Part shown: piece after piece, positions 2,742 through 21,272 of the stretch
Numbering within the stretch: position 1 is the stretch's first letter
Layout: every line of letters starts with the position of its first letter
NCBI RefSeq assembly: GCF_000146505.1
Contig: NC_017448.1
Coordinates: 630,001-662,000, forward strand
DNA length: 32,000 bases
Origin: Fibrobacter succinogenes subsp. succinogenes S85
GTDB taxonomy: Bacteria > Fibrobacterota > Fibrobacteria > Fibrobacterales > Fibrobacteraceae
Direction of reading: 5' to 3'
Translations under genes and position numbers: made by a program
The notes under the pieces: model-generated
Database searches by the model: none
What the model saw: only the letters and a program-made list of their open reading frames with translations
Told to the model about the DNA's origin: nothing

Positions 2742-3767
2742 ATGAATCTGCATTTTTTCAAGACAGTTTTTGCAGTGGCGCTGGTGGCGGGCGCGGGTTG
2801 TTTTTTCGGTTGCTCTTCGGAGAAGGCTCCCGAGGTTGAGAACAACACGCTTGTCAATGTGTCTTACGATCCGACGCGTGAGTTCTATTCCAATTACAAT
2901 CATATTTTTATGAAGCATTGGAAAGAGGCTACCGGCAAGGATGTGAAAATTACGCAGTTTCATGGCGGTTCGGGCAAGCAGGCGCTTGAGGTGGTGAACG
3001 GGCTTGAAGCGGATGTGGTCACGCTCGCGCTGGAATACGACGTGAACATTGTCCGTGACGCAGGGCTTATTGAAAACGGCTGGGTCAAGGAATTTCCACG
3101 CAACAGCGCTCCTTACACTTCGACGATTGTGTTTCTCGTGCGCAAGGGGAATCCCAAGAAAATCAGTGACTGGAACGATCTCGTGAAGGACGGCATCGGC
3201 ATCATCACGCCAGATCCCAAAACTTCGGGCGGTGCGCGCTGGAATTATCTTGCGGCTTGGGCTTATGCAGAAAAGCAGTTCAACGGAGATGAGGAGCAAG
3301 TCAAAGGTTTCATGAAGAAGCTTTATCAAAATGTTCTTGACCTCGCTTCGGGCGCACGCGGTTCAACAAATACATTCATAGAAGAACGCAAGGGCGATGT
3401 GCTGCTTTCTTGGGAAAACGAGGCATTCCTTTCGCTCAAGGACTACCCCAAGGATTACGAAATCGTGATGCCGAGTGTGAGCGTTTTGGCAGAGCCTTCT
3501 GTCGCGATTGTAGATAAGATTGTAGACAAACGCAACACGCGCAAACTTGCGACGGAATACCTGAATTATCTATACTCTGACGAAGCGCAGCATGTTGCGG
3601 CAAGGCATCATTACCGTCCGACAAACAAGGCGATTCTTGACGAGTACAAAGAATTTGACCAGAATGTCAATCTGATTACGATTGAGCATTTTGGCGGTTG
3701 GGAAAATGCACAGAAGACGCACTTTTCCGAGTATGGGATTTTCGACCAGATTTACGAGAAAAATTAA
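2742..3767 (+). CDS. sbp: Sulfate/thiosulfate ABC transporter substrate-binding lipoprotein (Sbp/CysP type)
   Basis: 341 aa. Signal peptide with lipobox FFGC. The blocks SYDPTREFY, HGGSGKQA, TPDPKTSGGARWNYLAAW and NEAFL are characteristic of sulfate-binding proteins. No cysTWA permease or ATPase genes are adjacent. Confidence 0.85.
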   Translation: MNLHFFKTVFAVALVAGAGCFFGCSSEKAPEVENNTLVNVSYDPTREFYSNYNHIFMKHWKEATGKDVKITQFHGGSGKQALEVVNGLEADVVTLALEYDVNIVRDAGLIENGWVKEFPRNSAPYTSTIVFLVRKGNPKKISDWNDLVKDGIGIITPDPKTSGGARWNYLAAWAYAEKQFNGDEEQVKGFMKKLYQNVLDLASGARGSTNTFIEERKGDVLLSWENEAFLSLKDYPKDYEIVMPSVSVLAEPSVAIVDKIVDKRNTRKLATEYLNYLYSDEAQHVAARHHYRPTNKAILDEYKEFDQNVNLITIEHFGGWENAQKTHFSEYGIFDQIYEKN

Positions 3768-3865
3768 GCATTTCAAAGCGCAAATAAAGTAACAAAATCC
3801 TAGTTATAGAAGCACCTCGTTCAATAGCTGAGCGAGTTTTTTATAGCAACCCAAAACCTCTTTCC

Positions 3866-3933
3866 TATAGAAAATACCTATTAAAAGCCATATAAAATTA
3901 GTATTGGACAATTACACATTTGCGTTCTATATT
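3866..3933 (+). promoter_or_regulatory. Conserved promoter/operator module, copy 1 (upstream of metY)
   Basis: TATAGAA (3866-3872), then ATAAAATTAGTATTGGACAA, then TTCTATATT (3925-3933). TGGACA and TATATT are 17 nt apart, which is sigma70-like. The same module with the same 59-nt TATAGAA/TTCTATA offset recurs at 5235 and 8331. The downstream leader ends in GTACGGAGA before the start codon. Confidence 0.5.
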
Positions 3934-3973
3934 TACCCACAAAATTTATAGGATTATGTACGGAGAATGTTGA

Positions 3974-5203
3974 ATGGATTTTAATACGACTTTATTGCAT
4001 CATAATTTTGAAAGTGAACGAAGTACCGGCTCTACGCTTACCCCTATTTATCAAGTCAGTGCATTTTCGCAAGAATCCGCAGAGAAACTCGAAGCTGTTT
4101 TTAACAATAGGGCTCCGGGTTTTGCATATACGCGCATTGGAAACCCCACGACAGATTCTTTCGAAAGGCGCATTGCATCTCTTGAAAAGGGCATTGGCGC
4201 CATAGCCTGCTCGTCGGGCATGGCTGCCGTGACGATGTCGCTCTTGAACATTTTGCAGTCCGGCGACGAAGTTATTGCAAGTACGGCATTGTTTGGCGGC
4301 ACGATCGACTTGTTCCACGATTTGGAAGCATTCGGCATTAAAACCCGTTACGTCACAGAAGTTACCGCTGAGAGCGTTCGTTCACAATTGAGCGATAAGA
4401 CCAAGGCAGTTTTTACAGAACTTATCGGCAACCCGAAACTCAATGTCGTTGATATTCAAAGCGTTGCAGATGTCGCACACGAAGCAGGCGTCCCGCTGAT
4501 TGTCGACAGCACGACGGCAACTCCTTACCTTGTTCATCCTTTTGATTTTGGCGCAGATATCGTTGTCCATTCCTCTTCCAAGTACATCAATGGAAACGGC
4601 AGTGCCATCAGCGGCATCATCGTCGATAGCGGAAAATTCAAGTGGGATTACACCAAATACAAGGGCTTGGAAGAATACAAGCGCTTTAGCAAGTTTGCGT
4701 ACCTCGCAAAGCTCCGCAACGGAGTCTGGCGCAACATTGGTTGTTGTCTCGCACCCGCTACCGCATTCCTCAACTCGCTCGGGCTTGAAACTCTCGGGCT
4801 CCGCATGGAACGCCTTTGCGATAACGCTTTGCAGCTCGCTGAATTTTTGCAGGGTTTCGAAGGCATCAAGGTCAACTACCCCGCATTGAAGGGCAATCCC
4901 TATTACGATCTCGTTCAAAAGCAGTTTAACGGCAAGGGCGGCGCCATCATCTCGATTGACGCAGGCTCCAAAGAAAAGGCTTTCAAGCTCATCAACAACT
5001 TGAAATACGCTACAATAGCCACGAACATTGGCGACTTGCGCACACTCGTCATCCACCCGGATAGCACGATTTTCACGCACAGTACCAAACTGCAAAAAGA
5101 AAACGCAGGCGTGTTCGAAGGTTCCATCCGCATCAGCGTAGGCATTGAAGATATTGCCGATCTCAAGGAAGATTTCGAACAAGCTATAAAGCAGATTTCG
5201 TAG
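3974..5203 (+). CDS. metY: O-acetylhomoserine sulfhydrylase (Cys/Met-metabolism PLP enzyme, MetY type)
   Basis: 409 aa. Blocks PIYQVSAF, YTRIGNPT, LFGGT and GADIVVHSSSKYINGNG (PLP lysine). IVDSGKFKW is typical of OAH/OAS sulfhydrylases. Confidence 0.85.
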   Translation: MDFNTTLLHHNFESERSTGSTLTPIYQVSAFSQESAEKLEAVFNNRAPGFAYTRIGNPTTDSFERRIASLEKGIGAIACSSGMAAVTMSLLNILQSGDEVIASTALFGGTIDLFHDLEAFGIKTRYVTEVTAESVRSQLSDKTKAVFTELIGNPKLNVVDIQSVADVAHEAGVPLIVDSTTATPYLVHPFDFGADIVVHSSSKYINGNGSAISGIIVDSGKFKWDYTKYKGLEEYKRFSKFAYLAKLRNGVWRNIGCCLAPATAFLNSLGLETLGLRMERLCDNALQLAEFLQGFEGIKVNYPALKGNPYYDLVQKQFNGKGGAIISIDAGSKEKAFKLINNLKYATIATNIGDLRTLVIHPDSTIFTHSTKLQKENAGVFEGSIRISVGIEDIADLKEDFEQAIKQIS

Positions 5204-5234
5204 CTATTAACCATTGACTAATAACTAACGACCA

Positions 5235-5302
5235 TATAGAAAATTTCAATAACTCAGCATAAAAATTAAGTATTGGACAAGTTAAAAAACGCGTTCTATA
5301 TT
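5235..5302 (+). promoter_or_regulatory. Conserved promoter/operator module, copy 2 (upstream of tusA-like gene)
   Basis: TATAGAA 5235-5241, TTGGACA 5273-5279, TTCTATATT 5294-5302. Nearly identical to copy 3 across about 70 nt. The leader ends in GTACGGAGA before ATG 5334. Confidence 0.5.
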
Positions 5303-5333
5303 TAGCATCAAAATTAAAGTACGGAGATAAAAA

Positions 5334-5582
5334 ATGTCAGAAGAAATTAAAGTAGACGATACCGTCGACGTCACCGATGTCAAATGCCCCACTACATTTG
5401 TCAAGGCTAAAGTCGCTATCGAAGAACTTGACGAAGGTCAGATTCTCGCAATCCGCCTGAACGACGGCGAACCGGTGCAGAATGTGCCGCGCAGCCTCAA
5501 GGAAGAAGGTCACGAAATCCTCAAGCTCAACGACAATCAGGACGGAACCTTTACACTCTTTGTGAAAAAAGTCGGGGACTAA
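5334..5582 (+). CDS. tusA: TusA/SirA-family sulfurtransferase
   Basis: 82 aa. Conserved D-V-x-C-P active-site cysteine motif (DVKCPTTFVKAK). The size and pattern fit the TusA family. Confidence 0.8.
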   Translation: MSEEIKVDDTVDVTDVKCPTTFVKAKVAIEELDEGQILAIRLNDGEPVQNVPRSLKEEGHEILKLNDNQDGTFTLFVKKVGD

Positions 5583-5594
5583 CCCCAAAAGGCG

Positions 5595-5615
5595 ATCCCG
5601 GAATAAATCCGGGAT
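5595..5615 (+). other. Perfect 8-bp stem-loop between tusA and the carrier gene (no T-run)
   Basis: ATCCCGGA-ataaa-TCCGGGAT, followed by GACAG and no U-tract, so not an obvious terminator. It shares a GGATGACAG word with 22702-22710. Confidence 0.5.
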
Positions 5616-5654
5616 GACAGCGAAAACAATTTAAACAAAAAAGGAATTTCAAAC

Positions 5655-5861
5655 ATGATTATTACCGTAGTTGGAAACAAGAAAGAAGTTAAAGACGGCC
5701 TCACCGTCGCAGAACTCATTGAACAAGAAAAGGTAGAAACGCCGCAGTACGTGACCGTTTCCGTGAACGATGAATTTGTCGAAAACGGAAATTTCGCAAC
5801 TACCGCCCTCAAGGACGGCGACAACGTCGAATTCCTCTACTTCATGGGAGGTGGTCAGTAA
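5655..5861 (+). CDS. ThiS/MoaD-family ubiquitin-like sulfur-carrier protein with one residue (Gln) after the diglycine
   Basis: 68 aa with a ThiS-like pattern (..LKDGDNVEFLYFMGGGQ*). The stop TAA overlaps the ATG of the E1 gene (TAATG at 5859-5863). Confidence 0.8.
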   Translation: MIITVVGNKKEVKDGLTVAELIEQEKVETPQYVTVSVNDEFVENGNFATTALKDGDNVEFLYFMGGGQ

Positions 5862-6670
5862 TGGCTTTTACTAACGAACAACTCGAACGCTATTCCCGCC
5901 ACATCATCCTCAAGGAAGTGGGTGCAAAGGGCCAGAAGAAGCTTTTGAACGCCAAGGTGCTCGTCATTGGCGCAGGTGGCCTCGGTGCTCCTGTCGCTAT
6001 GTACCTCGCCGCCGCAGGCGTTGGCACCATTGGCATTGCCGATGCAGACGTCGTTGACCTTTCCAATTTGCAGCGCCAGATTATCCATGCTACAAAGGAC
6101 GTGGGTAAGCCCAAGGTGCAGTCCGCCAAGGAAACGATGGAAGCGATGAACCCGGATGTCAAGGTGATTACGTATCACACGTTCGTCACTAGCGAAAACA
6201 TCATGGACCTCATCAAGGATTACGATTTTATCATTGACGGAACCGACAACTTTCCGGCAAAGTTCCTCATCAACGACGCTTGCGTCATGGCCAAGAAGCC
6301 GTTCTCTCACGCGGGCATTATCCGCTTCCAGGGGCAGCTCATGACGTACGTTCCGGGTCAAGGTCCGTGCTACCGCTGTGTTTTCAAGGAACCCCCTCCG
6401 AAAGATGCCGTGCCGACTTGCAAACAGGCAGGCGTGATCGGCGCTATGGGCGGTGTAATCGGTAGCCTCCAGGCGATGGAAGCCATCAAGTACATTCTCG
6501 GTGTCGGCAATCTGCTCACGGGCTACTTGCTCACCTACAATGCGCTCACGATGGAATTCCGCAAGATCAAGCTCCCGACGCATACGAAAGATTGCGCAGT
6601 CTGCGGTGACCACCCGACGATTGACCATCTGATCGACTACGAACAAGCCGTCTGTGAGATGAAGCACTAA
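5861..6670 (+). CDS. ThiF/MoeB/HesA-family E1-like adenylyltransferase (no rhodanese domain)
   Basis: 269 aa. YSRHIIL, the nucleotide loop VIGAGGLGAP, DxDxVxxSNLQRQ, and two CxxC pairs (CYRC, CAVC). Confidence 0.85.
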   Translation: MAFTNEQLERYSRHIILKEVGAKGQKKLLNAKVLVIGAGGLGAPVAMYLAAAGVGTIGIADADVVDLSNLQRQIIHATKDVGKPKVQSAKETMEAMNPDVKVITYHTFVTSENIMDLIKDYDFIIDGTDNFPAKFLINDACVMAKKPFSHAGIIRFQGQLMTYVPGQGPCYRCVFKEPPPKDAVPTCKQAGVIGAMGGVIGSLQAMEAIKYILGVGNLLTGYLLTYNALTMEFRKIKLPTHTKDCAVCGDHPTIDHLIDYEQAVCEMKH

Positions 6671-6679
6671 GGAATTTCA

Positions 6680-7090
6680 ATGATTACAATTTCAAAAGAT
6701 GATTATCAAAAAATCCTGGAGCATGCCCAGAAGAACCTCCCCGAAGAGGCTTGCGGGCTGATAGCCGGGAAAATTGAGGGGAACGACAAGCACATTGAAA
6801 AGGTCTATTTGCTCACGAACATAGACCATTCCAATGAGCACTTTTCGCTTGACCCCAAGGAACACTTAGCCGCCATCAAGGATATGCGCCAAAACGGCCT
6901 ATCCCCGCTTGGTAACTGGCATTCCCACCCCGAGTCCCCGTCGCGCCCGTCGCAAGAAGACAAGCGCCTCGCTTTCGACAGCAAGGCTAGCTACTTGATT
7001 CTTTCGCTGATGGATCGTGAAAATCCGGTGCTCAATTCGTTCCATATCGAAGGCGACAATGCCACGAACGAAGGCTTGGTAATCGGGTAA
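6680..7090 (+). CDS. JAMM/MPN+ metallopeptidase (Mec+/HcyD/CysO-hydrolase type), paralogue 1
   Basis: 136 aa. Upstream catalytic Glu (EEACG) and a complete JAMM motif HSHPESPSRPSQED (H-x-H-x7-S-x2-D). Confidence 0.85.
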   Translation: MITISKDDYQKILEHAQKNLPEEACGLIAGKIEGNDKHIEKVYLLTNIDHSNEHFSLDPKEHLAAIKDMRQNGLSPLGNWHSHPESPSRPSQEDKRLAFDSKASYLILSLMDRENPVLNSFHIEGDNATNEGLVIG

Positions 7091-7107
7091 AGGTCTCCGT
7101 ACAAACG

Positions 7108-7154
7108 GCGCCCCTGGGATCCTTCTGAAATTCCGATTCCGGGGGCGCTTTTTT
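7108..7154 (+). terminator. Terminator-like stem-loop between the two JAMM genes
   Basis: GCGCCCC (7108-7114) pairs with GGGGCGC (7142-7148) around a long loop. TTTTTT follows at 7149-7154. Confidence 0.4.
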
Positions 7155-7169
7155 ATAGGGGAAATTTTA

Positions 7170-7550
7170 ATGATGGCCAAATATAGTAAAAACATTTATG
7201 AACAAATGGTTTTAGCAGCCAAAAAAGCATATCCGAACGAATGCTGTGGCATTTTGGTGGGTAAAAAGTCCGAACAGAGCGAAATCGAAGTGACCGAAAT
7301 TCGCGAAGCCGAGAACCAGTTTCAAGGGCAGAAAGCAGTCCACTTCAAAATAGACCCGCTATATCTTTACCACTTGGAGCAAGAACTTGATCCGCGCGGT
7401 CTTGAAATTGTCGGCATTTACCATTCACACCCCGACTGCCCCGCCATTCTCTCCAAAGAAGACGAAAAATACATGGTTCCTGGCCTCGAATACGTCATCA
7501 TGTCCGTGCAAAACGGCGAAGTCGTGGATGTGAAAAGCTATAGGAAATGA
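7170..7550 (+). CDS. JAMM/MPN+ metallopeptidase, paralogue 2
   Basis: 126 aa. NECCG Glu motif and JAMM motif HSHPDCPAILSKED (H-x-H-x7-S-x2-D). Confidence 0.8.
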   Translation: MMAKYSKNIYEQMVLAAKKAYPNECCGILVGKKSEQSEIEVTEIREAENQFQGQKAVHFKIDPLYLYHLEQELDPRGLEIVGIYHSHPDCPAILSKEDEKYMVPGLEYVIMSVQNGEVVDVKSYRK

Positions 7551-7565
7551 GTTTAGAGTTTCTGT

Positions 7566-7583
7566 TGTAAAAATATTTTTACA
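7566..7583. repeat. Perfect 18-bp palindrome TGTAAAAATATTTTTACA
   Basis: Read directly: the two 9-nt halves are exact reverse complements. It lies just after JAMM2 and upstream of the toxin-antitoxin pair. Confidence 0.8.
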
Positions 7584-7761
7584 TCATTCTTGCTAACGGT
7601 AGATTGCAAAATTTAAGCAGTTTCCGTTTTTCGTGATTATCGTTTGTAGATTTACCTCAAACATAAAAATGAGGTCTAAAAGGATAATGTCTAGCAACAC
7701 CAAAGTTCACACTCAAGGGAAAAAATATATTTTAATGGAGTCTGTTTTTCCGGAGGCTTTT

Positions 7762-7989
7762 ATGACATATTCTGAAATTGAAGAAAAAATCAGAAAAGTG
7801 CCTGAGGAATATCTTGCCATCATCGACGCCTTTATCGACGGATTGATGATTCAGCATCAAATGAAAAAGAAACCATCCGATGAATTAACCGCCGCCATCA
7901 AAGAAAGCGAAGCCATGCTCAACGATCCGAACGCAAAGAAGTTCGATTCCGTAGATGCTCTATTTGCTGATCTTGATGCGGAGGAATAG
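7762..7989 (+). CDS. Type II antitoxin (RelB/DinJ-like partner of YafQ)
   Basis: ATG 7762 is preceded by GGAGG (7752-7756). The product is a 75-aa acidic protein ending ..KKFDSVDALFADLDAEE. Its stop TAG is immediately followed by the toxin ATG. The listed start 7633 lacks an RBS and adds an implausible N-terminus. Confidence 0.6.
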   Translation: MTYSEIEEKIRKVPEEYLAIIDAFIDGLMIQHQMKKKPSDELTAAIKESEAMLNDPNAKKFDSVDALFADLDAEE

Positions 7990-8265
7990 ATGGCATATCA
8001 AATCGAATACACCTCTCGTTTCAAGAAAGAATACAAATTGGCAAAAAAGAGGGGACGCGACATAAATTTGTTGCGAACCGTCATTGAGATTCTTGCAAAA
8101 GGCGAGCCTCTCCCAGAAAAATACAAGGACCATCCACTGGTATCTAATTGGAGCGGATATCGCGAATGCCATATTCAAAGCGATTGGTTGCTGATTTACA
8201 AGTACAAGGACAATGAACTCATTTTGAGTTTAACAGCAACAGGCTCACATAGCGATTTATTCTAA
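7990..8265 (+). CDS. yafQ: YafQ/RelE-family type II toxin (mRNA interferase)
   Basis: 91 aa. FKKEYKLAKKRG, PLPEKYKDHPL.G, WSGYRECHI.DWLLIY, and a terminal H..L(F) pattern typical of YafQ toxins. Confidence 0.8.
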   Translation: MAYQIEYTSRFKKEYKLAKKRGRDINLLRTVIEILAKGEPLPEKYKDHPLVSNWSGYRECHIQSDWLLIYKYKDNELILSLTATGSHSDLF

Positions 8266-8273
8266 AACATTTA

Positions 8274-8298
8274 GGGCAGCCCAAAGCTGTCCGTTTTT
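8274..8298 (+). terminator. Rho-independent terminator after the TA pair
   Basis: GGGCAGC-ccaaa-GCTGTCC (one G-U pair) followed by gTTTTT. Confidence 0.55.
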
Positions 8299-8330
8299 GT
8301 AATAACCTACGATAACTAAAAGCCTTCAGT

Positions 8331-8398
8331 TATAGAAAAAATCAATAAGTTCGCATAAAAATTAAGTATTGGACAAACGCGTTTTTACGTTCTATATT
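8331..8398 (+). promoter_or_regulatory. Conserved promoter/operator module, copy 3 (upstream of Ubl-E1-rhodanese gene)
   Basis: TATAGAA 8331-8337, TTGGACA 8369-8375, TTCTATATT 8390-8398. A longer leader carries GTACGGA twice (8439, 8461) before GTG 8475. Confidence 0.5.
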
Positions 8399-8474
8399 TC
8401 AGCACGAAAAAATCCTATAGCTATTGTGGGAAAATTTGTACGGAACAACCACTTTTTAATGTACGGAGAAAAAA

Positions 8475-9953
8475 GTGAGAATTTATATATCAGCAACCCT
8501 TAGGAATTTCTTCGGGAAAAACGCGCAAGTCAGCGTCCCCGAAAACACGGTTAGAAAGGCTCTCGCCAATTTAATAAGTACTTATCCAGAAGGAGAAAAA
8601 GTCCTTTTTGATGAAAACAACAAGCTCAGAAGTTTCATCAAGATCTACCTCAATGGCAAGAATTTGAACGTCGATACACTCTGGGACGCCACACTTGAAG
8701 ACGATTCCGAAATTTTGCTTTTGCCCGCCATCGCAGGCGGCGCACCGATTGAAGAATCGCAAAGCAAACACGTCGAAAGCTTGATTTCTGACGAAAGACG
8801 CAAGGAAGTCGCTTTTGACGATAGCGAAATTGAACGCTTCGGCAAGCACCTGATGCTCAAAGACATCGGCGTCAAGGGCCAAAAGCGCATCAAGGCCGCA
8901 AAAGTCGTCGTCATTGGCGTTGGCGCACTCGGCTCTCCGGTGATCCAGTATCTCGCCGCCGCAGGCGTTGGCACCATCAAGGCCATCGACTTCGACGAAG
9001 TCTCGCTCGAAAACTTGCAAAGCCAGGTATTGCACGGCACACGCGACGTCAAGCGTCCGAAGGTCGCCTCAGCAAAGGACAAAGTCAAAAACATCAACAA
9101 GAATATCGTCTTTGAAGCCGTCAAGGAACAGCTCGACGCATCGAACATCGAAGCCGAAATTGAAGGCTACGATCTCGTTATTGACTGCACGGACAACTAC
9201 AAGGCTCGCTACCTGATCAACGACGCTTGCGCTCTGCACGGCATTCCGCTTGTGTTCGGCGCGATTTACCAGTTCGAAGGCCAAGTCGGCATTTTCAACT
9301 TGGATGGCGGTCCATGCTTGCGTTGCCAATACCCATCCCCTCCGCCGGCAGGGCTCATCCCCTCCTGCGCAGAAGGCGGCGCCATCAGCCCGCTCCCGGG
9401 AATCATCGGCAGCATCCAGGCAAACGAAGCGCTCAAGCTCATCTTGGGAATCGGTGAACACCTGAACGGCAAAATTCTCCACGTGGATAGTTTGTACTTA
9501 TCTTCGAGAATTTTCAAGGTCGAACGCGATTGCCATTGCCCGATTTGCGGTAACAATCCGACAATCACAAACGTCGAAGATATCGACTACGAAGACCTTT
9601 GCGGATTGAAGACCACAAACGAAACGCCTGTGGAAGGATTCACGCCCGAAGAACTCGCCAAGCGCATCGACAACGGCGACGACATCACAATTGTTGACGT
9701 CCGCGAGCCGCACGAACGCGCGATTTTGCGTTTCCCGAACGCCATCGTGATTCCAATCGGACAGCTCGTTCGCAGACAAAAGGAACTCGATCCAAATAAG
9801 GATACGATTTTCATTTGTAAACAAGGCAAGCGTAGCGAACTTGCCATCAACACATTGCGCGAAGCGGGCTACACCGGTCCTCTGTACAACTTAAAGGGCG
9901 GTATCGACGCAATGAAGGACATCATGTTCTCACACGAAGGCGCTTGGTTATAA
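8475..9953 (+). CDS. Triple fusion: MoaD/ThiS-like Ubl domain (internal GG), ThiF/MoeB E1 domain and rhodanese domain
   Basis: 492 aa. Residues 1-89 are beta-grasp-like and end LLLPAIAGG (GG codons 8736-8741). A linker follows, then the E1 domain (VIGVGALGSP, SLENLQSQ, CLRC and CPIC). The C-terminal rhodanese has the active-site loop FICKQGKRS (Cys codon 9816-9818). GTG start with RBS GGAG. Confidence 0.85.
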   Translation: MRIYISATLRNFFGKNAQVSVPENTVRKALANLISTYPEGEKVLFDENNKLRSFIKIYLNGKNLNVDTLWDATLEDDSEILLLPAIAGGAPIEESQSKHVESLISDERRKEVAFDDSEIERFGKHLMLKDIGVKGQKRIKAAKVVVIGVGALGSPVIQYLAAAGVGTIKAIDFDEVSLENLQSQVLHGTRDVKRPKVASAKDKVKNINKNIVFEAVKEQLDASNIEAEIEGYDLVIDCTDNYKARYLINDACALHGIPLVFGAIYQFEGQVGIFNLDGGPCLRCQYPSPPPAGLIPSCAEGGAISPLPGIIGSIQANEALKLILGIGEHLNGKILHVDSLYLSSRIFKVERDCHCPICGNNPTITNVEDIDYEDLCGLKTTNETPVEGFTPEELAKRIDNGDDITIVDVREPHERAILRFPNAIVIPIGQLVRRQKELDPNKDTIFICKQGKRSELAINTLREAGYTGPLYNLKGGIDAMKDIMFSHEGAWL

Positions 9954-10108
9954 CGTAGGGCTTTGAATAGGGAAAAGCTATGTCAAAAAAATTTTTCGAC
10001 AAGGGCAGATTTTCGTAACAACAAAATAAGCTTATTATTTTCTAACATTCACATCTAAATACTAGGAAAATAGTTTTAAACACAACTAACAATAAGAGGT
10101 AAACCATT

Positions 10109-11071
10109 ATGGCAAATGAAGCAGAAAAGAACACGGGCATTAATGCCCTCGGCGCCAAGGCCGCTTACAACCTGGCGAACGTCACCAAGACCAAGCCGCA
10201 ATTTGGCGCGCTCACGCCCAAGTGGCTCACCAAGTTCCTTGAATTCAAGGGTCTCGAAACAGGTCTTTTCCGCGTGAACAAGGTCGTCGAAGGCCAGACA
10301 CCGCTCGACGTTCTTTGCAGCGCTACCAAGAAGTCCGATATCATCCCGGAAGGCTACGTCGAATACGAAACCGAACCGCGCGAATACAAGCTCAACTCCA
10401 TCTCCACGATCATCAACGTCAACACCGCTATCGAAGACGTTTACAGCTCCCCGTATGATCAGGTTCAGGAACAGCTCGGTCTCGCTATCGAATCTCTCCG
10501 CGAACGTCAGGAAAGCCAGCTCATCAACAACGATGACTACGGTCTCTTGAAAAACATCGCTGACTCTCAGCGCATCCAGCCGCTCCGTGCCGATGGCCGC
10601 CCGACTCCGGACGATCTCGATGAACTCATTTCGAAGGTTTGGAAGGAACCGTCCTTCTTCCTCGCCCACCCGCGTGCTATTGCCGCATTCGCCCGTGAAT
10701 GCACCCGCCGTGGCGTGCCGCCTGTCGTTGTAGACCTCGCCGGTAGCAGATTCCTCACCTGGCGCGGCATTCCTCTCGTTCCGACCGACAAGCTCCTTGT
10801 CGATGGCGTGAAGAACCCGAAGTCTCAGGGTGGCAAGACCAACATCTTGCTCGTCCGTACTGGCGAAGCCAAGCGCGGCGTTATCGGTCTCTTCCAGGCC
10901 GGTCTCAAGAACGAACACTCCCGTGGCCTCTCTGTGCGTTTCCGCGGTATCGACAACAAGGGCGTTGCATCTTACCTCTTGTCTCTGTACTGCTCTGCCG
11001 CAATTCTCGCAGACGACGCTATCGCCGTGTTAGAAGATGTCGAGGTTGGCGAATACTATGACTACGAATAA
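10109..11071 (+). CDS. Family 2A encapsulin shell protein (SrpI-like, no cNMP-binding insertion)
   Basis: 320 aa. Long conserved blocks recalled from SrpI-type encapsulins: WKEPSFFLAHPRAIAAFARECTRRGVPP, TWRGIPLVPTDK, LSVRFRGI, ASYLLSLYCS. RBS AAGAGG. It sits directly upstream of a desulfurase with a disordered N-terminus. Confidence 0.8.
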   Translation: MANEAEKNTGINALGAKAAYNLANVTKTKPQFGALTPKWLTKFLEFKGLETGLFRVNKVVEGQTPLDVLCSATKKSDIIPEGYVEYETEPREYKLNSISTIINVNTAIEDVYSSPYDQVQEQLGLAIESLRERQESQLINNDDYGLLKNIADSQRIQPLRADGRPTPDDLDELISKVWKEPSFFLAHPRAIAAFARECTRRGVPPVVVDLAGSRFLTWRGIPLVPTDKLLVDGVKNPKSQGGKTNILLVRTGEAKRGVIGLFQAGLKNEHSRGLSVRFRGIDNKGVASYLLSLYCSAAILADDAIAVLEDVEVGEYYDYE

Positions 11072-12800
11072 TCCAGAAACCAGATCGCTGGAAGAACTCG
11101 CCGGAGTTCCCAATGCGGCTGAACTGGAGCAATTGGCAAATGCGTATTTCCCGGATTTGACGGATAGCGCATACGCAGCAACCCCCGCCGCTCCCGAAGC
11201 GCAGAACGCATCTGCCGCTCAGGGAGTCAGTGCAGCTCAGGGTGCCGCAGCCATCAGCCAGACTCCAGCCTTCGACTGGGAACACCCCTTTGCGACCTAT
11301 GGCGACCAGCCGACATCCTCGGCTCCGTTTGCCTATGGCGGAAGTTCTACAGACACCTGGCTCAACACGGTTGAAGCCCCTGCGGTTCCCGAATCGCAGT
11401 TTGCATCGCAGCTGAGCGATATTCCGACAGCCCCCGCACCGGCTCAGGGTTACTCCCCGAAGGTCGTGTCCAAGACGCAGGCTGCCGAAGCTAGCCGCCA
11501 GATCGATGCACCGACTTCTCTCGGTGGCGATTCCGTGAAGACGGGTTCTGCAAACAGCGGCGCAAATTCTCGCAACGATTCCATCCGCATCGGTTCCAAG
11601 ACTCTTGCCCAGATCCGTTCTGACTTCCCGATTCTCTCGAAGCAGATCAACGGTCATCCGCTCGTTTGGCTCGATAACGGTGCAACAACGCAGCGCCCGC
11701 AGGTAGTCATTGACCGCCTCAAGTACTACTACGAAAACGAAAACTCCAACGTTCACCGTGGCGCTCACACGCTCGCGGCCGCATCGACAGACGCCTACGA
11801 AAACGCACGCAACATCGTTCGTGACTTTATCGGCGCTCCGTCCTCGCAGGAAGTTGTTTTCGTTCGCGGTACAACAGAAGCCATTAACTTGGTTGCAAAT
11901 GCCTACGTGAAGCCGACGCTCCAGCCGGGTGACGAAATCATCGTCTCCATTTTGGAACACCACGCCAACATCGTTCCGTGGCAGCTCATTGCCGAAGAAA
12001 CGGGCGCAATCATCAAGGTGATTCCGTGCGATTCTACCGGTCAGCTCAAGCTCCACGATTACGAAGCATTGTTCACGAAGCGTACCAAGTTCGTTTCCGT
12101 GACGCACGTTTCGAACGTGCTCGGCACTGTAACCCCGATTGAAGAACTCATCGCCATCGCTCATAGACACGGCGTGAGAATCCTCATTGACGGCGCTCAG
12201 TCCATCGCTCACATCCCGGTAAACGTTGCAGCCCTCGATGCAGACTTCTTCGTGTTCTCTGGACACAAGGTGTTTGCTCCGACCGGTATCGGCGTTGTCT
12301 ATGGCAAGAAGGAATTGCTTGAAGCAGCAAGACCTTACCATGGCGGCGGCAACATGATTGCGGACGTCACGTTCGAACGCACGATTTACAACGGAATTCC
12401 GAACAAGTTCGAAGCTGGTACCGGAAGCATCGCCGACGCTGTTGGCCTCGGTGCAGCCCTCCAGTACCTCACTGAAATCGGGATGCCGTGCGTATTCCGC
12501 TGGGAACATGAACTGTTGCAGTACGGCCTCAAGGAATTGAAGACTGTCAAGGGTATCCACCTTGTGGGAACCGCACTCAACAAGGCTTCTGCGCTTGCCT
12601 TCAAGCTCGACGGTTATTCCGACGAAGAAGTGGGCAAGAGACTCGACGCATACGGCGTTGCCGTTCGCACCGGGCATCACTGCGCTCAGCCAGTTCTCCG
12701 CCATTTCGGCTACGAAAGTACCGTGCGACCCACACTCGCATTGTACAACTCACCGGATGACATCGACGCCCTCGTAAGAGCGTTGAAGACATTCGCATAG
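11058..12800 (+). CDS. Group II (SufS/CsdA-type) cysteine desulfurase with about 185-aa disordered N-terminal extension (encapsulin cargo type)
   Basis: The catalytic part starts near 11613 (IRSDFPILS..LDNGATTQ). PLP lysine in FSGHKVFAPTG and active-site RTGHHCAQP. The N-terminus is Ala/Pro/Ser/Gln-rich and contains LEQLANAYFP (11124-11153). ATG 11058 (GAGG 12 nt upstream) overlaps the encapsulin 3' end by 14 nt. ATG 11037 is an alternative start. Confidence 0.85.
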   Translation: MTTNNPETRSLEELAGVPNAAELEQLANAYFPDLTDSAYAATPAAPEAQNASAAQGVSAAQGAAAISQTPAFDWEHPFATYGDQPTSSAPFAYGGSSTDTWLNTVEAPAVPESQFASQLSDIPTAPAPAQGYSPKVVSKTQAAEASRQIDAPTSLGGDSVKTGSANSGANSRNDSIRIGSKTLAQIRSDFPILSKQINGHPLVWLDNGATTQRPQVVIDRLKYYYENENSNVHRGAHTLAAASTDAYENARNIVRDFIGAPSSQEVVFVRGTTEAINLVANAYVKPTLQPGDEIIVSILEHHANIVPWQLIAEETGAIIKVIPCDSTGQLKLHDYEALFTKRTKFVSVTHVSNVLGTVTPIEELIAIAHRHGVRILIDGAQSIAHIPVNVAALDADFFVFSGHKVFAPTGIGVVYGKKELLEAARPYHGGGNMIADVTFERTIYNGIPNKFEAGTGSIADAVGLGAALQYLTEIGMPCVFRWEHELLQYGLKELKTVKGIHLVGTALNKASALAFKLDGYSDEEVGKRLDAYGVAVRTGHHCAQPVLRHFGYESTVRPTLALYNSPDDIDALVRALKTFA

Positions 12801-12801
12801 C

Positions 12802-12914
12802 AGGTCGCGTCCTTCGGACGCTTTGAGCGATGAGGTCGCACCTGCGGTGCTTTGGGGTTCTGAGCTATAGCCCATACCTCAGAGGGAGCCGCAGGCGACC
12901 GACCCCATACCTCA
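12802..12914. repeat. Cluster of short hairpin/direct repeats in the desulfurase-cysE spacer
   Basis: AGGTCGC followed by a hairpin occurs twice: GCGTCC-ttc-GGACGC at 12807-12821 and GCACC-tgc-GGTGC at 12838-12850. An inverted GGCGACC lies at 12894-12900. CCCATACCTCA occurs twice (12871-12881 and 12904-12914). Confidence 0.6.
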
Positions 12915-12948
12915 TACCTTATCATTACTTCTTATTTTTCAAAAATCT

Positions 12949-13911
12949 ATGCACGAACTTATCCAAGAATCTGAAGTTGAAAAAGCCGTACAAATTATTT
13001 TTGACGATTACAATCGCGGCAAGCATATCGACAATATCGATATTTACAATCGACCCGACCAGGCCGAAATCCAGACAATTTTGCAGAATCTGATTCGAGT
13101 CGTTTATCCTGGACACTTCAGAGATCGTTCGCATAAGATTTACAATCCCAAGAACAGCTTTGCAGTTCTTATCGAAGATACGTTCTACCACCTTCACAAG
13201 CAGGTGGCGATTGCGCTAGATTACTGCAAATTGCGCGGTTCCATGACCTCGGACGAGCGCAAAATTGAAAGCTATAGAATTTGTAAGGAATTCTTCGCCA
13301 AGATTCCGCAAATCCGCGAATTCCTGGAAACCGATTTACACGCCGCTTTTGACGGCGACCCTGCTGCCGGCTGCCTTGACGAGATTATCCTCGCCTACCC
13401 CGGTCTCATGGCGACAACCATTTACCGCATCGCCCACGAACTTTATCTTTTACACGTTCCGGTTCTCCCGCGACTCATGACCGAATATGCCCATTCCAAA
13501 ACAGGCATCGACATCCATCCGGGTGCAACCATCGGCAAATACTTCTTTATCGATCACGGCACAGGCATTGTGATTGGCGAAACCGCAGTCATCGGCAAGA
13601 ACGTCAAGATTTACCAAGGCGTCACGCTAGGCGCACTTTCAACTCGCGGCGGACAAAAGCTCTCCGGCAAAAAGCGCCACCCCACCATTCAAGACAACGT
13701 CACTATTTACGCGGGAGCATCCATTCTCGGCGGAGATACCGTTGTTGGCGAAAACGCAATTATCGGCGGCAACGCCTTCATCACGCGATCCATTGAGGCC
13801 AACACTCGCGTCAGCCTCAAGAATCTTGAAATGGATTACGTTTCAACCACCAATAGCAAGCACAAGACCGAAGAACTCCAGCAAAGCGACGAGTGGTACT
13901 ATATTATTTAG
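12949..13911 (+). CDS. cysE: Serine O-acetyltransferase (long-form CysE/EpsC type)
   Basis: 320 aa. Left-handed beta-helix hexapeptide repeats (GIDIHPGATIGKYFFIDHGTGIVIGETAVIGKNVKIYQGVTLG) and the SAT N-terminal helical domain. Confidence 0.85.
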   Translation: MHELIQESEVEKAVQIIFDDYNRGKHIDNIDIYNRPDQAEIQTILQNLIRVVYPGHFRDRSHKIYNPKNSFAVLIEDTFYHLHKQVAIALDYCKLRGSMTSDERKIESYRICKEFFAKIPQIREFLETDLHAAFDGDPAAGCLDEIILAYPGLMATTIYRIAHELYLLHVPVLPRLMTEYAHSKTGIDIHPGATIGKYFFIDHGTGIVIGETAVIGKNVKIYQGVTLGALSTRGGQKLSGKKRHPTIQDNVTIYAGASILGGDTVVGENAIIGGNAFITRSIEANTRVSLKNLEMDYVSTTNSKHKTEELQQSDEWYYII

Positions 13912-13972
13912 CAGGAAGTAGGCGGTAGGAAGTAGGAAGTGGTTAGTAAACAGTGGTTAGTAGGAAGTAAAA
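13912..13972. repeat. Low-complexity purine/T word repeats (AGGAAGT, GTGGTTAGTA)
   Basis: caGGAAGTAGGcGGTAGGAAGTAGGAAGTGGTTAGTAaacaGTGGTTAGTAGGAAGTaaaa, read directly. Confidence 0.7.
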
Positions 13973-13977: not shown

Positions 13978-14007
13978 AAAACCCGCACTCGGACGAGCAC
14001 GGGTTTT
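13978..14007. terminator. Bidirectional terminator between convergent cysE and pectate lyase genes
   Basis: AAAACCCG (13978-13985) pairs with CGGGTTTT (14000-14007). This gives an A-run/T-run hairpin usable on both strands. Confidence 0.55.
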
Positions 14008-14027: not shown

Positions 14028-15797
14028 TTATCGAACAGTTATGCGTCGCGCTTCGTTACCGACTCGCAAGAGGTACATGCCCGCACGAGGAACGGTTATC
14101 AAGCTTTCGCGACCCAAAGACTGAACTTTTGTAATCAGCCTGCCCTGGGCATCCAGGAGATACGCCGTTTGCGTAGCACCTTGTACGGTAAGAACTCGAC
14201 CGTTGACAGAAACATTGAAATGCGAAGCAACCGTAGCGACATCCAACGAAGTCGTGCCTTGTTCCGAGCTAGAGCTCGAATCAACTTTGCTAGAACTTGA
14301 TTCAACAGAACTAGAGCTAGACTCTGCAACCGCTCCATTTGCACCAACAACCGTAATAGTTCCGTTCTTGGTCGCATTTGTCGTAGCCCCAGTTGTCGTT
14401 ACGGTAAAATTGTACGCCCCCACAGCAGCATTTTGAGCGACCGTACCTGAGATGTAAAAATCACTACCCTTCATTGTTCCTGAAACACCTTCAGGCAGTC
14501 CCGTAACAGTCGCACCCGTGGCGCCAGCGACAGTAAAGTAAAATTCTTCGATAGATTCACCTTGCTTGACTTCTTGCTTAGCGCTACCCGAGCCGTGCTT
14601 AGTAAGTGTCGCCGTTCCCGAAACAGCCTCCCCCTGCGAGGAACTAGATACAGCCTGCGAGGAGCTGGACTGCGCGACACTGCTACTGGATTTCGCGACA
14701 CTTGAACTAGACACAGCCACGCTGGAACTAGACTGTACTTCGCTCGAAGAAGATGCGGGCGTCACCGTTTGAGATTTTCCCGGATCAGGGAGCGTCGCTC
14801 CTGCGTACAACTTAATGGAATCACGAAGGGCATAAGCCTTTGCCTGCGTACTCACGTCCGTAAGGCTCATGGAATAACTCGGCTTGAACGCCGTGCCCGT
14901 ACCGGCCTGCGGTTTCTTCACGTTTTCTTCGTAATTTTCAATCATTTGCGCCGCCGTGATCGTTCCATCGCTCGTGTAAAGGTCAAGCGCCTTCTGCACA
15001 CCGATAAACACGTTCCTTTCAATGCGGATATCAGCCTCTACTGCCGCACGCACGCAGTAGCTCGCGTTCTTGCTATCGAAGAGGTTGTTCGCCACATGTA
15101 CCTTGCCAAAACGCACACGCGGCATGCGTTCCACCACGCCATCCGCCCACCACGTATGGTGAATCGTGACATTTAGGTGCCCACGGTCGCTCGTCTTTGT
15201 CTTGCTGTTGCCAATCAAGTTGCTGAACTGGTGACCTGTCGATGCAGAGGTGTAACTGAACTTGGTCCAAGAAATCGTCACGTAGTCCGAAGCATTGGTA
15301 ATGTCCAGGTTACCGTCGTGACCGTCATACACGTCGACATGGTCAATCCACACGTTCTTGGATTCGTGATTCACTTGGAGGCAATCTTCATCATCGTCAT
15401 CGTGCGCACCCACACCCTTGAATTTCAGGTTGCGGATGATGACGTTCTTCGAGCCACTCAGTTTCATGGCGCTACCCGAAGCGGGCTGCGCAATGATGGC
15501 GCCCTGGTAGCCGTAAATCGTCACGTTGCTACCGACTTCCACCGGACCCATGTACGTACCCGGCTTCACGTAGATAATCTTGTTGCCCGCCTTGGCGTAG
15601 CTCTTGAGGTCGTTCACGTTGTCAACCGTAACCTCGGAGTAGCCCTTGCCGCCCGTAGTGCCGCCATTCTGCGTGGCAAAACCCGCCATCGGAAAATCCG
15701 GCGAAGTCACCGCAAACGCAGGAACCGCAGCCGTTGTGACAGCCAAAGCCGCGAAAGTTGCGGCCACACGCATCGTTTTAGAAAGCAAATAATTCAT
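14028..15797 (-). CDS. Secreted multidomain pectate lyase (PL1 catalytic domain, Ser-rich linkers, Ig-like module, T9SS-like C-terminal sorting domain)
   Basis: 589 aa with a signal peptide. PL1 blocks GGTTGGKG, DHVDVYDGHDGNLDIT and ERMPRVRFG. Two poly-Ser linkers. The C-terminal ~70 aa (..LLDAQGRLI..GMYLLRV..) resembles Por/T9SS tails. Confidence 0.8.
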   Translation of the reverse strand: MNYLLSKTMRVAATFAALAVTTAAVPAFAVTSPDFPMAGFATQNGGTTGGKGYSEVTVDNVNDLKSYAKAGNKIIYVKPGTYMGPVEVGSNVTIYGYQGAIIAQPASGSAMKLSGSKNVIIRNLKFKGVGAHDDDDEDCLQVNHESKNVWIDHVDVYDGHDGNLDITNASDYVTISWTKFSYTSASTGHQFSNLIGNSKTKTSDRGHLNVTIHHTWWADGVVERMPRVRFGKVHVANNLFDSKNASYCVRAAVEADIRIERNVFIGVQKALDLYTSDGTITAAQMIENYEENVKKPQAGTGTAFKPSYSMSLTDVSTQAKAYALRDSIKLYAGATLPDPGKSQTVTPASSSSEVQSSSSVAVSSSSVAKSSSSVAQSSSSQAVSSSSQGEAVSGTATLTKHGSGSAKQEVKQGESIEEFYFTVAGATGATVTGLPEGVSGTMKGSDFYISGTVAQNAAVGAYNFTVTTTGATTNATKNGTITVVGANGAVAESSSSSVESSSSKVDSSSSSEQGTTSLDVATVASHFNVSVNGRVLTVQGATQTAYLLDAQGRLITKVQSLGRESLITVPRAGMYLLRVGNEARRITVR

Positions 15798-15930
15798 AGC
15801 ACATCCCTTTTTTCTTTAAATTTAAGCCGACGAACCAGAAAACGCATCAAAAAATAGCCCCACACAACTCAAAGTGTCCTCTATAGACAACTCCTTTTTA
15901 ACCGAAAAAAAACGATCCACTCCTTGCACG

Positions 15931-15960
15931 AAAAGGCTTGCCCCCTAAGGAGCAAGCCTT
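15931..15960 (-). terminator. Terminator of the beta-helix lipoprotein gene
   Basis: On the minus strand: AAGGCTTGC-tccttaggggg-GCAAGCCTT followed by TTTT. Confidence 0.45.
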
Positions 15961-15990
15961 TAGTGTTTAGGAGGAAATTCAAGGGAAAGG

Positions 15991-17856: not shown

Positions 17857-18059
17857 ATATCACCCCATTTTTTCTATAAAAGTAGCTCCGGCACAGTCGT
17901 AAAAAAAGTGATACAAGCATATTTTTGAAATACGCGCAATTTTCTTTTGGGACGAAAAGTTCCATACGGAACAAAAAACCCCAACAACAATTACTCCAAC
18001 TAAGACCAACTTTCTTTTGAACATGCCTTAAATTTTTCTACAATTGGCGTAGAGGAATT

Positions 18060-19619: not shown

Positions 19620-19644
19620 CTTTCAAGAAATTGCGATTACAAGT

Positions 19645-19672
19645 AAAGCCTATCCTCCGAGATAGGCTTTTT
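19645..19672 (+). terminator. Rho-independent terminator after trpCF
   Basis: AAAGCCTATC-ctccga-GATAGGCTTT followed by TT. Confidence 0.7.
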
Positions 19673-19725
19673 CAATACCGCACCAAAATCGTACCAAAAA
19701 TTTACAAAAAAGTTATCGTAACCTA

Positions 19726-19890: not shown

Positions 19891-19981
19891 GCATTTTCAT
19901 TTTGCAGCGCCTCTGCAACCGCAAAAAAAAATAAAAATTTACAAAATCCCGCAAAAAGCGAAAAAAGCTATTTTCTGCGGC

Positions 19982-21136: not shown

Positions 21137-21177
21137 AGCCAACCCTTACCTCAAAAAATTCAACACTATAGCAAAAT

Positions 21178-21211: not shown

Positions 21212-21272
21212 GTATCGAACAGAGCTTTTAATCTGAAACAAGAATTATCGTTGTAATCAAACACCCCTCAAA

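Follow-up and report, generated by a model that had tools for sequence, protein, structure and literature searches.

Introduction

Desulfurase encapsulins are among the commonest Family 2 encapsulin systems. In those studied, the enclosed cysteine desulfurase converts cysteine to alanine and elemental sulfur (S0), which is kept in the shell; the enzyme works without an acceptor, and relatives of the system are induced under sulfur starvation (PMC10836720). How the encapsulated sulfur is remobilised is unexplained, and the rhodanese of the operon is the suspected agent (PMC10836720, PMC10925157). The published operon comprises four genes, encoding a rhodanese, an acetyltransferase, the shell and the desulfurase. 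Here we describe a Family 2A encapsulin and its cargo desulfurase in the rumen bacterium Fibrobacter succinogenes subsp. succinogenes S85, where they share a gene cluster with ubiquitin-like (Ubl) carrier proteins, E1-type activating enzymes and JAMM proteases. The analysis covered a stretch of 32,000 nucleotides (NC_017448.1, positions 630,001 to 662,000; hereafter the window), and positions below are those of the window.

Ubl, E1 and JAMM genes are known from other operons. Operon types 4b–4d, found for example in Mycobacterium tuberculosis, combine a Ubl, a JAMM protease, an E1-rhodanese and, in some cases, cysteine synthase, and type 4e combines ThiS, JAMM, an E1 without rhodanese, SirA, sulfate genes and O-acetylhomoserine sulfhydrylase, as in Wolinella; a desulfurase link was not reported for these Ubl operon types (Iyer et al. 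2006, PMC1779556). Wolinella MetY uses a carrier-protein thiocarboxylate (PMC8191291, PMC5764234), and NFS1/MOCS3 is a known relay from a desulfurase to an E1-rhodanese (PMC3625234).

Our full-text literature searches found nothing that joined encapsulins with thiocarboxylate, adenylyltransferase/E1, ubiquitin-like, ThiF or JAMM systems. In the accessible portions of the published encapsulin neighbourhood tables, rhodanese, hexapeptide transferase and PALP families are present, with no ThiF, JAB or ThiS. The eLife table, in its accessible portion, covers families at about 20% co-occurrence or above, and the encapsulin rhodanese study excluded proteins longer than 200 amino acids (aa). Because of these two limits, a minority clade carrying an E1-rhodanese would have escaped both surveys.

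Results

A Ubl–E1–rhodanese gene adjoins the shell gene in most loci of one encapsulin clade

Genes were called from a listing of open reading frames (ORFs) and from Pfam and NCBIfam profile scans of the window. The preliminary description had listed ten co-directional genes with only a toxin–antitoxin pair between them; the profile scans bore out every identity, and all ten genes are intact and on the + strand. The gene before the shell gene is a single 492-aa ORF (8475–9953, +) that fuses a Ubl domain (ThiS/MoaD, aa 4–89), an E1 (ThiF, aa 124–356) and a rhodanese (aa 390–480). It is followed by the genes for the 320-aa Family 2A shell protein (10109–11071, +; PF19307, 1e-92; NF041162, 478 bits, cutoff 380), the cargo cysteine desulfurase (11058–12800, +) and an encapsulin-type serine O-acetyltransferase (cysE; 12949–13911, +). 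The only rhodanese encoded beside the shell gene is the C-terminal domain of the fusion.

Related loci were collected by a one-genome-per-species scan with a Family 2A alignment of eight encapsulin sequences (an 18-sequence version was too divergent). This gave at least 597 relatives, the best 80 of which were retained, and the six-frame ORFs of these 80 loci were searched with the window proteins. Counts by shell identity took in only loci whose sequence extended 2.5 kb or more upstream. An E1-rhodanese was encoded in 16/16 loci at ≥85% shell identity and in 22/25 at 70–85% (21 directly adjacent), compared with 2/19 at 60–70% and 1/8 at 50–60%. Thus, 38/41 loci with at least 70% shell identity carried it, versus 3/27 more distant loci. 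In 37 of the 41 close loci it lay directly upstream of the shell gene, with a median gap of 67 bp between the E1-rhodanese stop and the shell start. Identity to the window of the E1, the rhodanese, the desulfurase and the serine acetyltransferase tracked shell identity (Spearman 0.92–0.94), so the block is passed on as one unit, by descent or by transfer. Viewed from the fusion, homologues of ∼485 aa with 68–99% identity are numerous, the named ones coming from Fibrobacter and Lachnospiraceae, and in all four contexts seen the shell and desulfurase genes lie directly downstream.

The closest locus (L010), from a rumen F. succinogenes metagenome-assembled genome (MAG), matches the window in shell sequence (99% identity) and in gene order, toxin–antitoxin pair included. 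Overall, the hosts carry the labels of about ten phyla, among which gene order differs: Fibrobacter, Lachnospiraceae, Ruminococcus, Oscillospiraceae, Selenomonas/Negativicutes, Treponema and Succinivibrionaceae, as well as Desulfovibrio, Helicobacteraceae, Victivallales/Lentisphaeria, Planctomycetota, Propionibacterium and a Verrucomicrobia MAG. Isolate genomes with the block include Pseudobutyrivibrio sp. UC1225 and Succinivibrionaceae WG-1. The block was also found on pACIB, a complete mobilizable plasmid of Aliarcobacter cibarius (L090, NZ_CP043858.1, 1952–13548), which carries sbp, cysteine synthase, an M67 (JAMM) peptidase, MoaD/ThiS, a rhodanese remnant, a 2A encapsulin, a cargo desulfurase, cysE and cysK; the E1 of this copy has been destroyed by IS110 and IS5 insertions. 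The block appears to move between phyla, and a plasmid such as pACIB is a possible vehicle for its spread. The claim that the Ubl/E1/JAMM and encapsulin/desulfurase genes belong together, for which the preliminary description had set a neighbourhood survey as one trial, thus holds: rather than never co-localising, they are linked in 38 of 41 close loci, in differing orders, in hosts labelled as about ten phyla and with co-varying sequences. We regard this linkage as strongly supported.

Some loci depart from the common arrangement. In a Clostridia MAG (L035, 8633–10936), Ubl, E1, rhodanese and encapsulin occupy a single 768-aa open frame. Because the Ubl is cut short and the junction resembles intergenic DNA read as protein, we rejected this as a true fusion of E1-rhodanese and encapsulin and regard a frameshift, a read-through or an assembly artefact as the probable cause. 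Two loci of the close clade without an E1-rhodanese have other genes upstream of the shell gene, namely a metallo-beta-lactamase-fold protein in a Desulfovibrio locus (L049, 7967–8977) and a PALP enzyme with two unassigned small ORFs in a Planctomycetaceae MAG (L039, 7391–9621).

Two carrier modules and a sulfhydrylase accompany the shell genes

The cluster can be divided into three modules. Module A would consist of the shell, the cargo desulfurase and the serine acetyltransferase, and module B of the Ubl::E1::rhodanese fusion with a second JAMM protease (JAMM-2; 7170–7550, +; Prok-JAB PF14464, 1e-23; E24, HSHPDCPAILSKED85), in what would be the operon slot of the encapsulin-associated rhodanese. 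Module C would comprise a TusA/SirA-like sulfur-transfer protein (5334–5582, +; PF01206, 3.5e-20; Cys18 in the CP motif), a ThiS-like Ubl carrier in pro-form (5655–5861, +; PF02597, TIGR01683), a 269-aa ThiF-type E1 adenylyltransferase without rhodanese (5861–6670, +; PF00899, 2e-88; no PF00581; GAGGLG37, CYRC170, CAVC245) and JAMM/MPN+ protease 1 (JAMM-1; 6680–7090, +; PF14464, 2e-26; E23, HSHPESPSRPSQED81). These go together with a 409-aa MetY-like O-acetylhomoserine sulfhydrylase (3974–5203, +; Cys_Met_Meta_PP PF01053, 5e-113; pyridoxal phosphate (PLP) lysine in SSSK200). Catalytic motifs are kept across the cluster, including HxHx7Sx2D in both JAMM proteins, GxGxxG and the CxxC pairs in the E1s, CKQGKRS in the rhodanese, the PLP lysines of MetY and the desulfurase, and the GHHCA cysteine of the latter. 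In related loci, synteny places JAMM-1 with ThiS, E1 and TusA, and JAMM-2 with the Ubl and E1-rhodanese; JAMM-2 orthologues lie directly upstream of Ubl/E1-rhodanese in other phyla.

To look for further neighbours, ORFs without a match among the window proteins were clustered across loci. The largest cluster was a CysK/CysM-like cysteine synthase, encoded immediately before JAMM-2 in 20 of 51 E1-rhodanese-positive loci. In rumen Lachnospiraceae and Succinivibrionaceae, the slot before JAMM is filled by a MetY 53–55% identical to that of the window, and in Butyrivibrio neighbouring genes share 8 nt (MetY and JAMM) and 4 nt (JAMM and fusion). Because cysteine synthase or MetY precedes JAMM across loci, the general operon is [cysteine synthase or MetY]–JAMM–Ubl–E1-rhodanese–shell–desulfurase–[acetyltransferase]. 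The TusA–ThiS–E1–JAMM module, with or without MetY, was found in 8/8 of the closest loci with long flanks and in 2/13 at 70–85% shell identity, and its position and strand vary between genomes. This module and MetY are a rumen-lineage addition, while the widely conserved partner of the shell is a CysO/MoeZ/Mec-type module.

These results bear on the earlier interpretation of the cluster as one transsulfuration route to homocysteine. The gene linkage on which it was built stands, so the interpretation is supported in part; its specific flow, from desulfurase to rhodanese/TusA, Ubl thiocarboxylate, MetY and homocysteine, is a proposal, and the comparison moves the emphasis away from MetY, with cysteine synthase in 20/51 loci and the MetY module confined to rumen lineages. 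From the gene content, 'transsulfuration to homocysteine' alone is too narrow, since the conserved shell partner is of the CysO/MoeZ/Mec type and the PLP enzyme is often a cysteine synthase.

MetY of the window scores 432 bits with TIGR01326, below the cutoff of 495, and matches PDB 8SF5 (2e-112) and Wolinella MetY 3RI6 (2e-85). Loci of Lachnospiraceae, Succinivibrionaceae, Ruminococcus and Clostridia have syntenic orthologues of it (53–70% identity). Occasional further neighbours in related loci were Rrf2 and LysR regulators, a thioredoxin-domain protein, sulfate transporters, CysDN, an adenosine 5′-phosphosulfate (APS) reductase-like protein and sulfite reductase. For example, metY and JAMM-2 are separated by a small sulfite-reductase-like gene in a Fibrobacter locus (L014, 6778–7884), and in Pseudobutyrivibrio (L006, 890–9390) genes for a sulfate ATP-binding cassette (ABC) transporter, an APS-reductase-like protein, a ferredoxin and CysDN come directly before the JAMM, fusion and shell genes.

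Both carriers have the features of pro-forms

Carrier pro-forms that need a JAMM cut are a hallmark of systems of the HcyS and QbsE kind. The ThiS-like carrier of the window ends in FMGGG-Q, one residue past GGG. In 24/25 ThiS-like proteins of related loci, FMGGG is followed by 1–5 further residues, and these 24 are all encoded with E1, JAMM and TusA; the lone exception, a remote second copy in L034, stops at GGG. The fusion Ubl (aa 1–89; 8475–8741) is CysO/MoaD-like, matches the ThiS Pfam family and the SAMP1 and MoaD NCBIfam models, and ends in AIAGG. The ending (P)AIAGG is invariant in the module-B Ubls of related loci, where it leads into the E1 through a linker if the two are fused, or is followed by 1–20 extra residues if the Ubl is a separate gene. 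A JAMM protein with an intact HxHx7Sx2D motif is always encoded near the carriers. Given the extra residues or the fused E1 after the GG, a JAMM cut is needed before activation.

The fusion has the motifs GVGALG148, CLRC281 and CPIC355 and the rhodanese motif CKQGKRS448. Its Ubl matches CysO (3DWG_C, 2e-4), and its E1 matches the MoeB (1JW9) and Uba4 (6YUB) structures, with the MoeZ (NF005902) and MoeB models as its top NCBIfam matches; the closest MoeZ is 43% identical. An AlphaFold2 model of the fusion (mean pLDDT 64; Ubl 72–91, linker <50, rhodanese 40–60) supports a folded Ubl with a low-confidence linker behind it and is too weak for fold search or docking. Between the rhodanese domain and the Acinetobacter baumannii encapsulin rhodanese (Ab-RLD), identity is only 25% (E 2e-4). 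The rhodanese neighbour had been described as fused here to an E1 and its Ubl, which is correct for its position; for the domain itself, we rejected membership of the encapsulin-associated rhodanese-like domain (RLD) cluster on these values.

The module-C carrier and E1 score above the equivalog cutoffs of thiS (TIGR01683, 72.6 vs 37.45) and thiF (TIGR02356, 276.3 vs 275.25), respectively. Their neighbours are TusA, JAMM and MetY instead of thiamin-thiazole genes, and ThiG, ThiH and ThiE were not seen among the annotated genes of the window or of four related contigs with gene-level Pfam annotation.

Shell, cargo and acetyltransferase resemble those of other desulfurase encapsulins

The shell protein matches PDB 8T6R (1e-111) and SrpI (6X8M, 2e-105) and is SrpI-like, with an HK97 fold and no cyclic nucleotide (cNMP)-binding insertion. 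The cargo is a desulfurase of the SufS class (PF00266, 2e-136; NF041166, 759 bits, cutoff 800). Its ORF is open from 11037, and ATG 11058 is most likely the start because the resulting 14-nt overlap with the shell stop recurs in the gene calls of four other genomes. As the preliminary description had noted, the protein has a long disordered N-terminus: ∼183 aa that match no family, are rich in A, S, P and T, and contain 81% disorder-promoting residues. This region carries a LANAYF motif, at the place equivalent to ARLANEFF in the A. baumannii cargo. PF00266 spans only aa 210–579, NF041166 likewise covers only the catalytic part, and the catalytic residues are the PLP lysine in SGHK401 and the cysteine in GHHCA539. 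The acetyltransferase (TIGR01172, NF041874; DIHPGA188) is 43% identical to that of the A. baumannii operon over 259 aligned residues (aa 36–288 of 320). By sequence, then, the three proteins are assigned as ordinary members of the desulfurase-encapsulin family. In the shared region, the shell clade is 52–56% identical to Family 2B representatives, versus about 40–45% to other full-length 2A shells, which hints at an unusual place in the Family 2 tree.

The locus compared with described systems

With the described Family 2A operons (Synechococcus elongatus SrpI, A. baumannii rhodanese–acetyltransferase–encapsulin–desulfurase and mycobacterial Mmp1), the window shares the shell, the acetyltransferase, the overlap of the encapsulin and desulfurase genes, and a SufS-type cargo with a disordered N-terminal loading region and LANxxF motif. 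Those operons have a single-domain rhodanese, whereas the window has the Ubl::E1::rhodanese fusion, a dedicated JAMM protease and an attached sulfhydrylase. The CysO/MoeZ/Mec+/CysM pathway of M. tuberculosis is similar in its MoaD/CysO-like carrier, its E1 with a C-terminal rhodanese and its intact JAMM. In contrast to this pathway, the window carrier forms one protein with the E1, from which it must be cut out; the window has no cysteine synthase, is joined to an encapsulin, and has an acetyltransferase that implies O-acetylserine rather than O-phosphoserine chemistry.

The HcyS/HcyF/HcyD/MetY cluster of Wolinella shares with the window an extended ThiS carrier, an E1 without rhodanese, SirA/TusA and JAMM; its O-acetylhomoserine sulfhydrylase and sulfate genes have as counterparts in the window a MetY-like enzyme below the TIGR01326 cutoff and, for sulfate uptake, sbp only. 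It differs in that MetY of the window is not especially near that of Wolinella, the window has no sulfite reductase, and the window module is co-located with a desulfurase encapsulin and has a promoter element in common with it. Finally, the eukaryotic Nfs1–(Tum1)–Uba4/MOCS3–Urm1 relay also joins a desulfurase, an E1-rhodanese and a Ubl thiocarboxylate; unlike the window, it serves tRNA and molybdenum cofactor (Moco) targets and has no shell, no JAMM processing and no sulfhydrylase.

A repeated promoter-like element precedes the sulfur genes in Fibrobacter

Direct repeats and an nhmmer search identified three strong copies of an element of about 81–85 nt, 69–100% identical to one another, all on the + strand. 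They lie before metY (3866–3946; TATAGAAAA..GCATAAAAATTAAGTATTGGACA..N..CGTTCTATATTT), before the tusA operon (5235–5315) and before the Ubl–E1–rhodanese gene (8331–8411). The cluster had been said to start at 3866; this position is the first base of the element, and the metY coding sequence starts at 3974. A weak fourth copy (62% identity; 941–1021, +) precedes bioB, and was placed by the direct-repeat family and alignment, being under the threshold of the three-copy nhmmer profile. The consensus is TATAGAAAAAnTCnATAAnTCnGCATAAAAATTAAGTATTGGACA-N13-CGTTCTATATTT, with a −35/−10-like pair (TTGGACA / TATATT) and a conserved upstream part of ∼40 nt.

When the nhmmer profile of the three strong copies was run against the collected encapsulin loci and the window, matches were confined to Fibrobacter loci (L001, L008, L010–L016), all on the + strand, and within the 32-kb window there were none beyond the copies listed. 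The position of the third copy was occupied in all nine distinct Fibrobacter loci. In loci with gene calls, the genes behind the element are those of cysT-type transporters, metY, tusA and the fusion gene, and some matches were unassigned to a gene; it never stood directly before the shell gene in these loci. A generic promoter was set aside as an explanation, given the restriction to Fibrobacter loci, to the + strand and, where called, to sulfur genes. The element is instead a candidate promoter of a Fibrobacter sulfur regulon, and some loci have LysR and Rrf2 genes near it.

No + strand terminator was predicted between the fusion and shell genes, and the spacer between them is not notably structured (z = −0.7). 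The simplest reading of these signals is that there are three co-regulated units and that the shell genes would be transcribed from the promoter of the fusion. The spacer between the desulfurase gene and cysE (12801–12948, +), on the other hand, is highly structured, with a minimum free energy of −55.9 kcal/mol (z = −4.5; 0/200 shuffles as stable). Orthologous spacers mostly have inverted repeats of unrelated sequence, as judged by eye (L001, L004, L008, L010–L012, L014–L016, L018, L023 and L026). The hairpin spacer may set the output of shell and cargo relative to acetyltransferase, either as an intercistronic stabiliser or as a partial terminator.

Flanking genes and other features of the window

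The cluster does not begin with metY, as had been proposed: three genes lie directly upstream of the metY side on the same strand. These encode biotin synthase (bioB; 1008–2039, +; TIGR00433, 327 bits, cutoff 225), a LysE-type exporter (2059–2655, +; PF01810; weak match to the cysteine/O-acetylserine exporter model NF007653, 94.7 bits, below cutoff) and a sulfate ABC transporter substrate-binding protein (Sbp/CysP; 2742–3767, +; NF008022, 453 bits, cutoff 288), and a terminator-like hairpin follows sbp (3816–3836). The stated absence of sulfate-transport genes from the window is thus only partly right: cysTWA is absent, but sbp is present. The window also has no CysK/CysM (the sole PALP protein in the NCBIfam scan is TrpB), and Pfam and NCBIfam gave no sulfite reductase among its genes.

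Between JAMM-2 and the promoter element of the fusion gene sits the toxin–antitoxin insertion (7633–8292), with a putative 118-aa antitoxin of no family (7633–7989, +), a YafQ toxin (7990–8265, +; PF15738, 2e-36) and a terminator-like hairpin (8274–8292). It is shared by L010 and L012 only and is missing from the near Fibrobacter loci L011, L001 and L008, so it is a strain-specific insertion. Beyond cysE lie short direct repeats of AGTAGG.. units (13917–13968) and a bidirectional terminator-like hairpin (13978–14007). An Rfam scan of the whole window found no riboswitch or other RNA family, and there are no tRNA genes.

The remaining genes (52–930 and 14028–31900) appear unrelated to the sulfur cluster. 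They encode a cupin fragment, DUF6803, pectate lyase, a Cthe_2159-type carbohydrate-binding protein, a trpC–trpF fusion, a DHH phosphoesterase, TrpB, TrpA, a mitochondrial-type aconitase, a GGDEF protein and an SNF-family transporter, along with two ORFs without a family match (21273–22196 and 31025–31900, both − strand).

Discussion

Both Ubl modules and the desulfurase encapsulin are of known kinds, and what is new is their conserved, mobile union. We propose, with confidence and doubt in equal parts, that the E1-rhodanese replaces the usual encapsulin rhodanese and links the sulfur store to thiocarboxylate-dependent cysteine or homocysteine synthesis; we infer all of the sulfur transfers and their direction. 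It is similarly an even question whether modules A, B and C make up one sulfur-responsive gene set. In the proposed scheme, JAMM-2 would cleave after Gly89 to free the Ubl from the fusion, and the Ubl C-terminus would be adenylated by the E1 and then thiocarboxylated from a persulfide on rhodanese Cys448. Sulfane sulfur from the encapsulated desulfurase, whether newly made or stored, would be picked up by the rhodanese domain and by TusA and loaded onto the Ubl carriers. It would be spent by MetY with O-acetylhomoserine in the window, and in many other taxa by cysteine synthase with O-acetylserine made by the acetyltransferase. JAMM would finally release the homocysteine or cysteine, and would thus act both before and after the sulfhydrylase step.

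Adjacency, co-variation, pro-form carriers, a preceding sulfhydrylase, a common promoter element and relay precedents all speak for this proposal. In a more specific version, set in a horizontally mobile operon of gut and rumen anaerobes, which we hold tentatively and with rather more doubt than belief, the E1-rhodanese with its cleavable Ubl would be a dedicated export/import port that docks at the shell and passes stored sulfur via thiocarboxylate to cysteine or homocysteine.

Several points weigh against such a hand-off. The shell is a barrier between the ∼45-kDa E1-rhodanese and the sulfur, and the studied desulfurase needs no acceptor. Functional equivalence to the encapsulin rhodanese is assumed, since the domains are 25% identical. 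Where the sulfhydrylase is a cysteine synthase, the scheme is a cycle from cysteine to S0 to cysteine, and is therefore sensible only as timed storage and release. These anaerobes live in sulfide-rich habitats, and sulfide can thiocarboxylate adenylated carriers directly. In addition, some loci join the module to sulfate-reduction genes or a sulfite reductase, three loci of the close clade have no E1-rhodanese, and the encapsulin association of the E1-rhodanese clade was viewed from the fusion side in four contexts only. Because most loci are MAG contigs, some host assignments are possibly binning errors.

Some of these observations would be expected if the coupling ran in reverse, that is, if the thiocarboxylate modules, acetyltransferase and sulfhydrylase made cysteine or homocysteine from sulfide or sulfate-derived sulfur and the desulfurase banked the surplus as S0. 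The conserved serine acetyltransferase and the cysteine synthase directly before JAMM in 20/51 loci fit this direction, as do the Pseudobutyrivibrio block right behind sulfate ABC, APS-reductase-like and CysDN genes, the Fibrobacter locus with sulfite reductase between MetY and JAMM-2, and an encapsulated desulfurase for which an acceptor is not needed (PMC10836720). We nevertheless consider reverse coupling unlikely: it leaves unexplained why an E1 with a persulfide-carrying rhodanese stands in the slot of the encapsulin rhodanese, and a promoter common with sulfate-uptake genes, together with starvation induction in relatives, fits withdrawal better than deposit. The modules could also be separate members of a sulfur island, merely co-regulated or co-transferred, with the Ubl systems using free sulfide and the encapsulin working independently. 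Many sulfur genes do cluster here and in related loci (sbp, the LysE exporter, bioB, transporters, Rrf2 and LysR regulators, thioredoxin), module C shifts in position and strand between genomes, and Wolinella-type systems have been described with sulfate- and sulfite-reduction genes (PMC1779556). Independence is improbable in our judgement, however, because module B is immediately upstream with short gaps in 37/41 close loci across many phyla and co-varies with the shell, a much closer tie than other sulfur genes show.

The least likely explanation, to which we give very little credence, is that the Ubl/E1 modules serve thiamin, molybdopterin, tRNA thiolation, a thio-metabolite or SAMP-like conjugation rather than amino acids. 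The equivalog scores of ThiS and its E1, the resemblance of the JAMM proteins to the archaeal desampylase model and the weak element copy at bioB are in line with such a role. Opposed to it, the annotated genes of the window and of the four Pfam-annotated related contigs include no ThiG, ThiH, ThiE, MoaE, NcsA, TtuA or E2-like gene, and C-terminally extended carriers with JAMM and a sulfhydrylase are the signature of the CysO/HcyS pathway (PMC1779556).

The recovery and destination of the sulfur in desulfurase encapsulins are an open question, for which the only suspect so far has been the small operon rhodanese (PMC10836720, PMC10925157). In the shell clade described here, the rhodanese is built into a well-understood delivery machine with an E1, a Ubl carrier, JAMM and a sulfhydrylase. 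The union of the two systems turns the encapsulin question into direct experiments, as every proposed step can be assayed by the mass shift of the carrier, ATP dependence, and homocysteine or cysteine formation. It would also extend protein-thiocarboxylate amino-acid synthesis, as in Mycobacterium and Wolinella, to important fibre degraders of the rumen. If true, the proposal of a port at the shell would provide the first defined sulfur route from a protein organelle to biosynthesis, and would explain the acetyltransferase in the operon.

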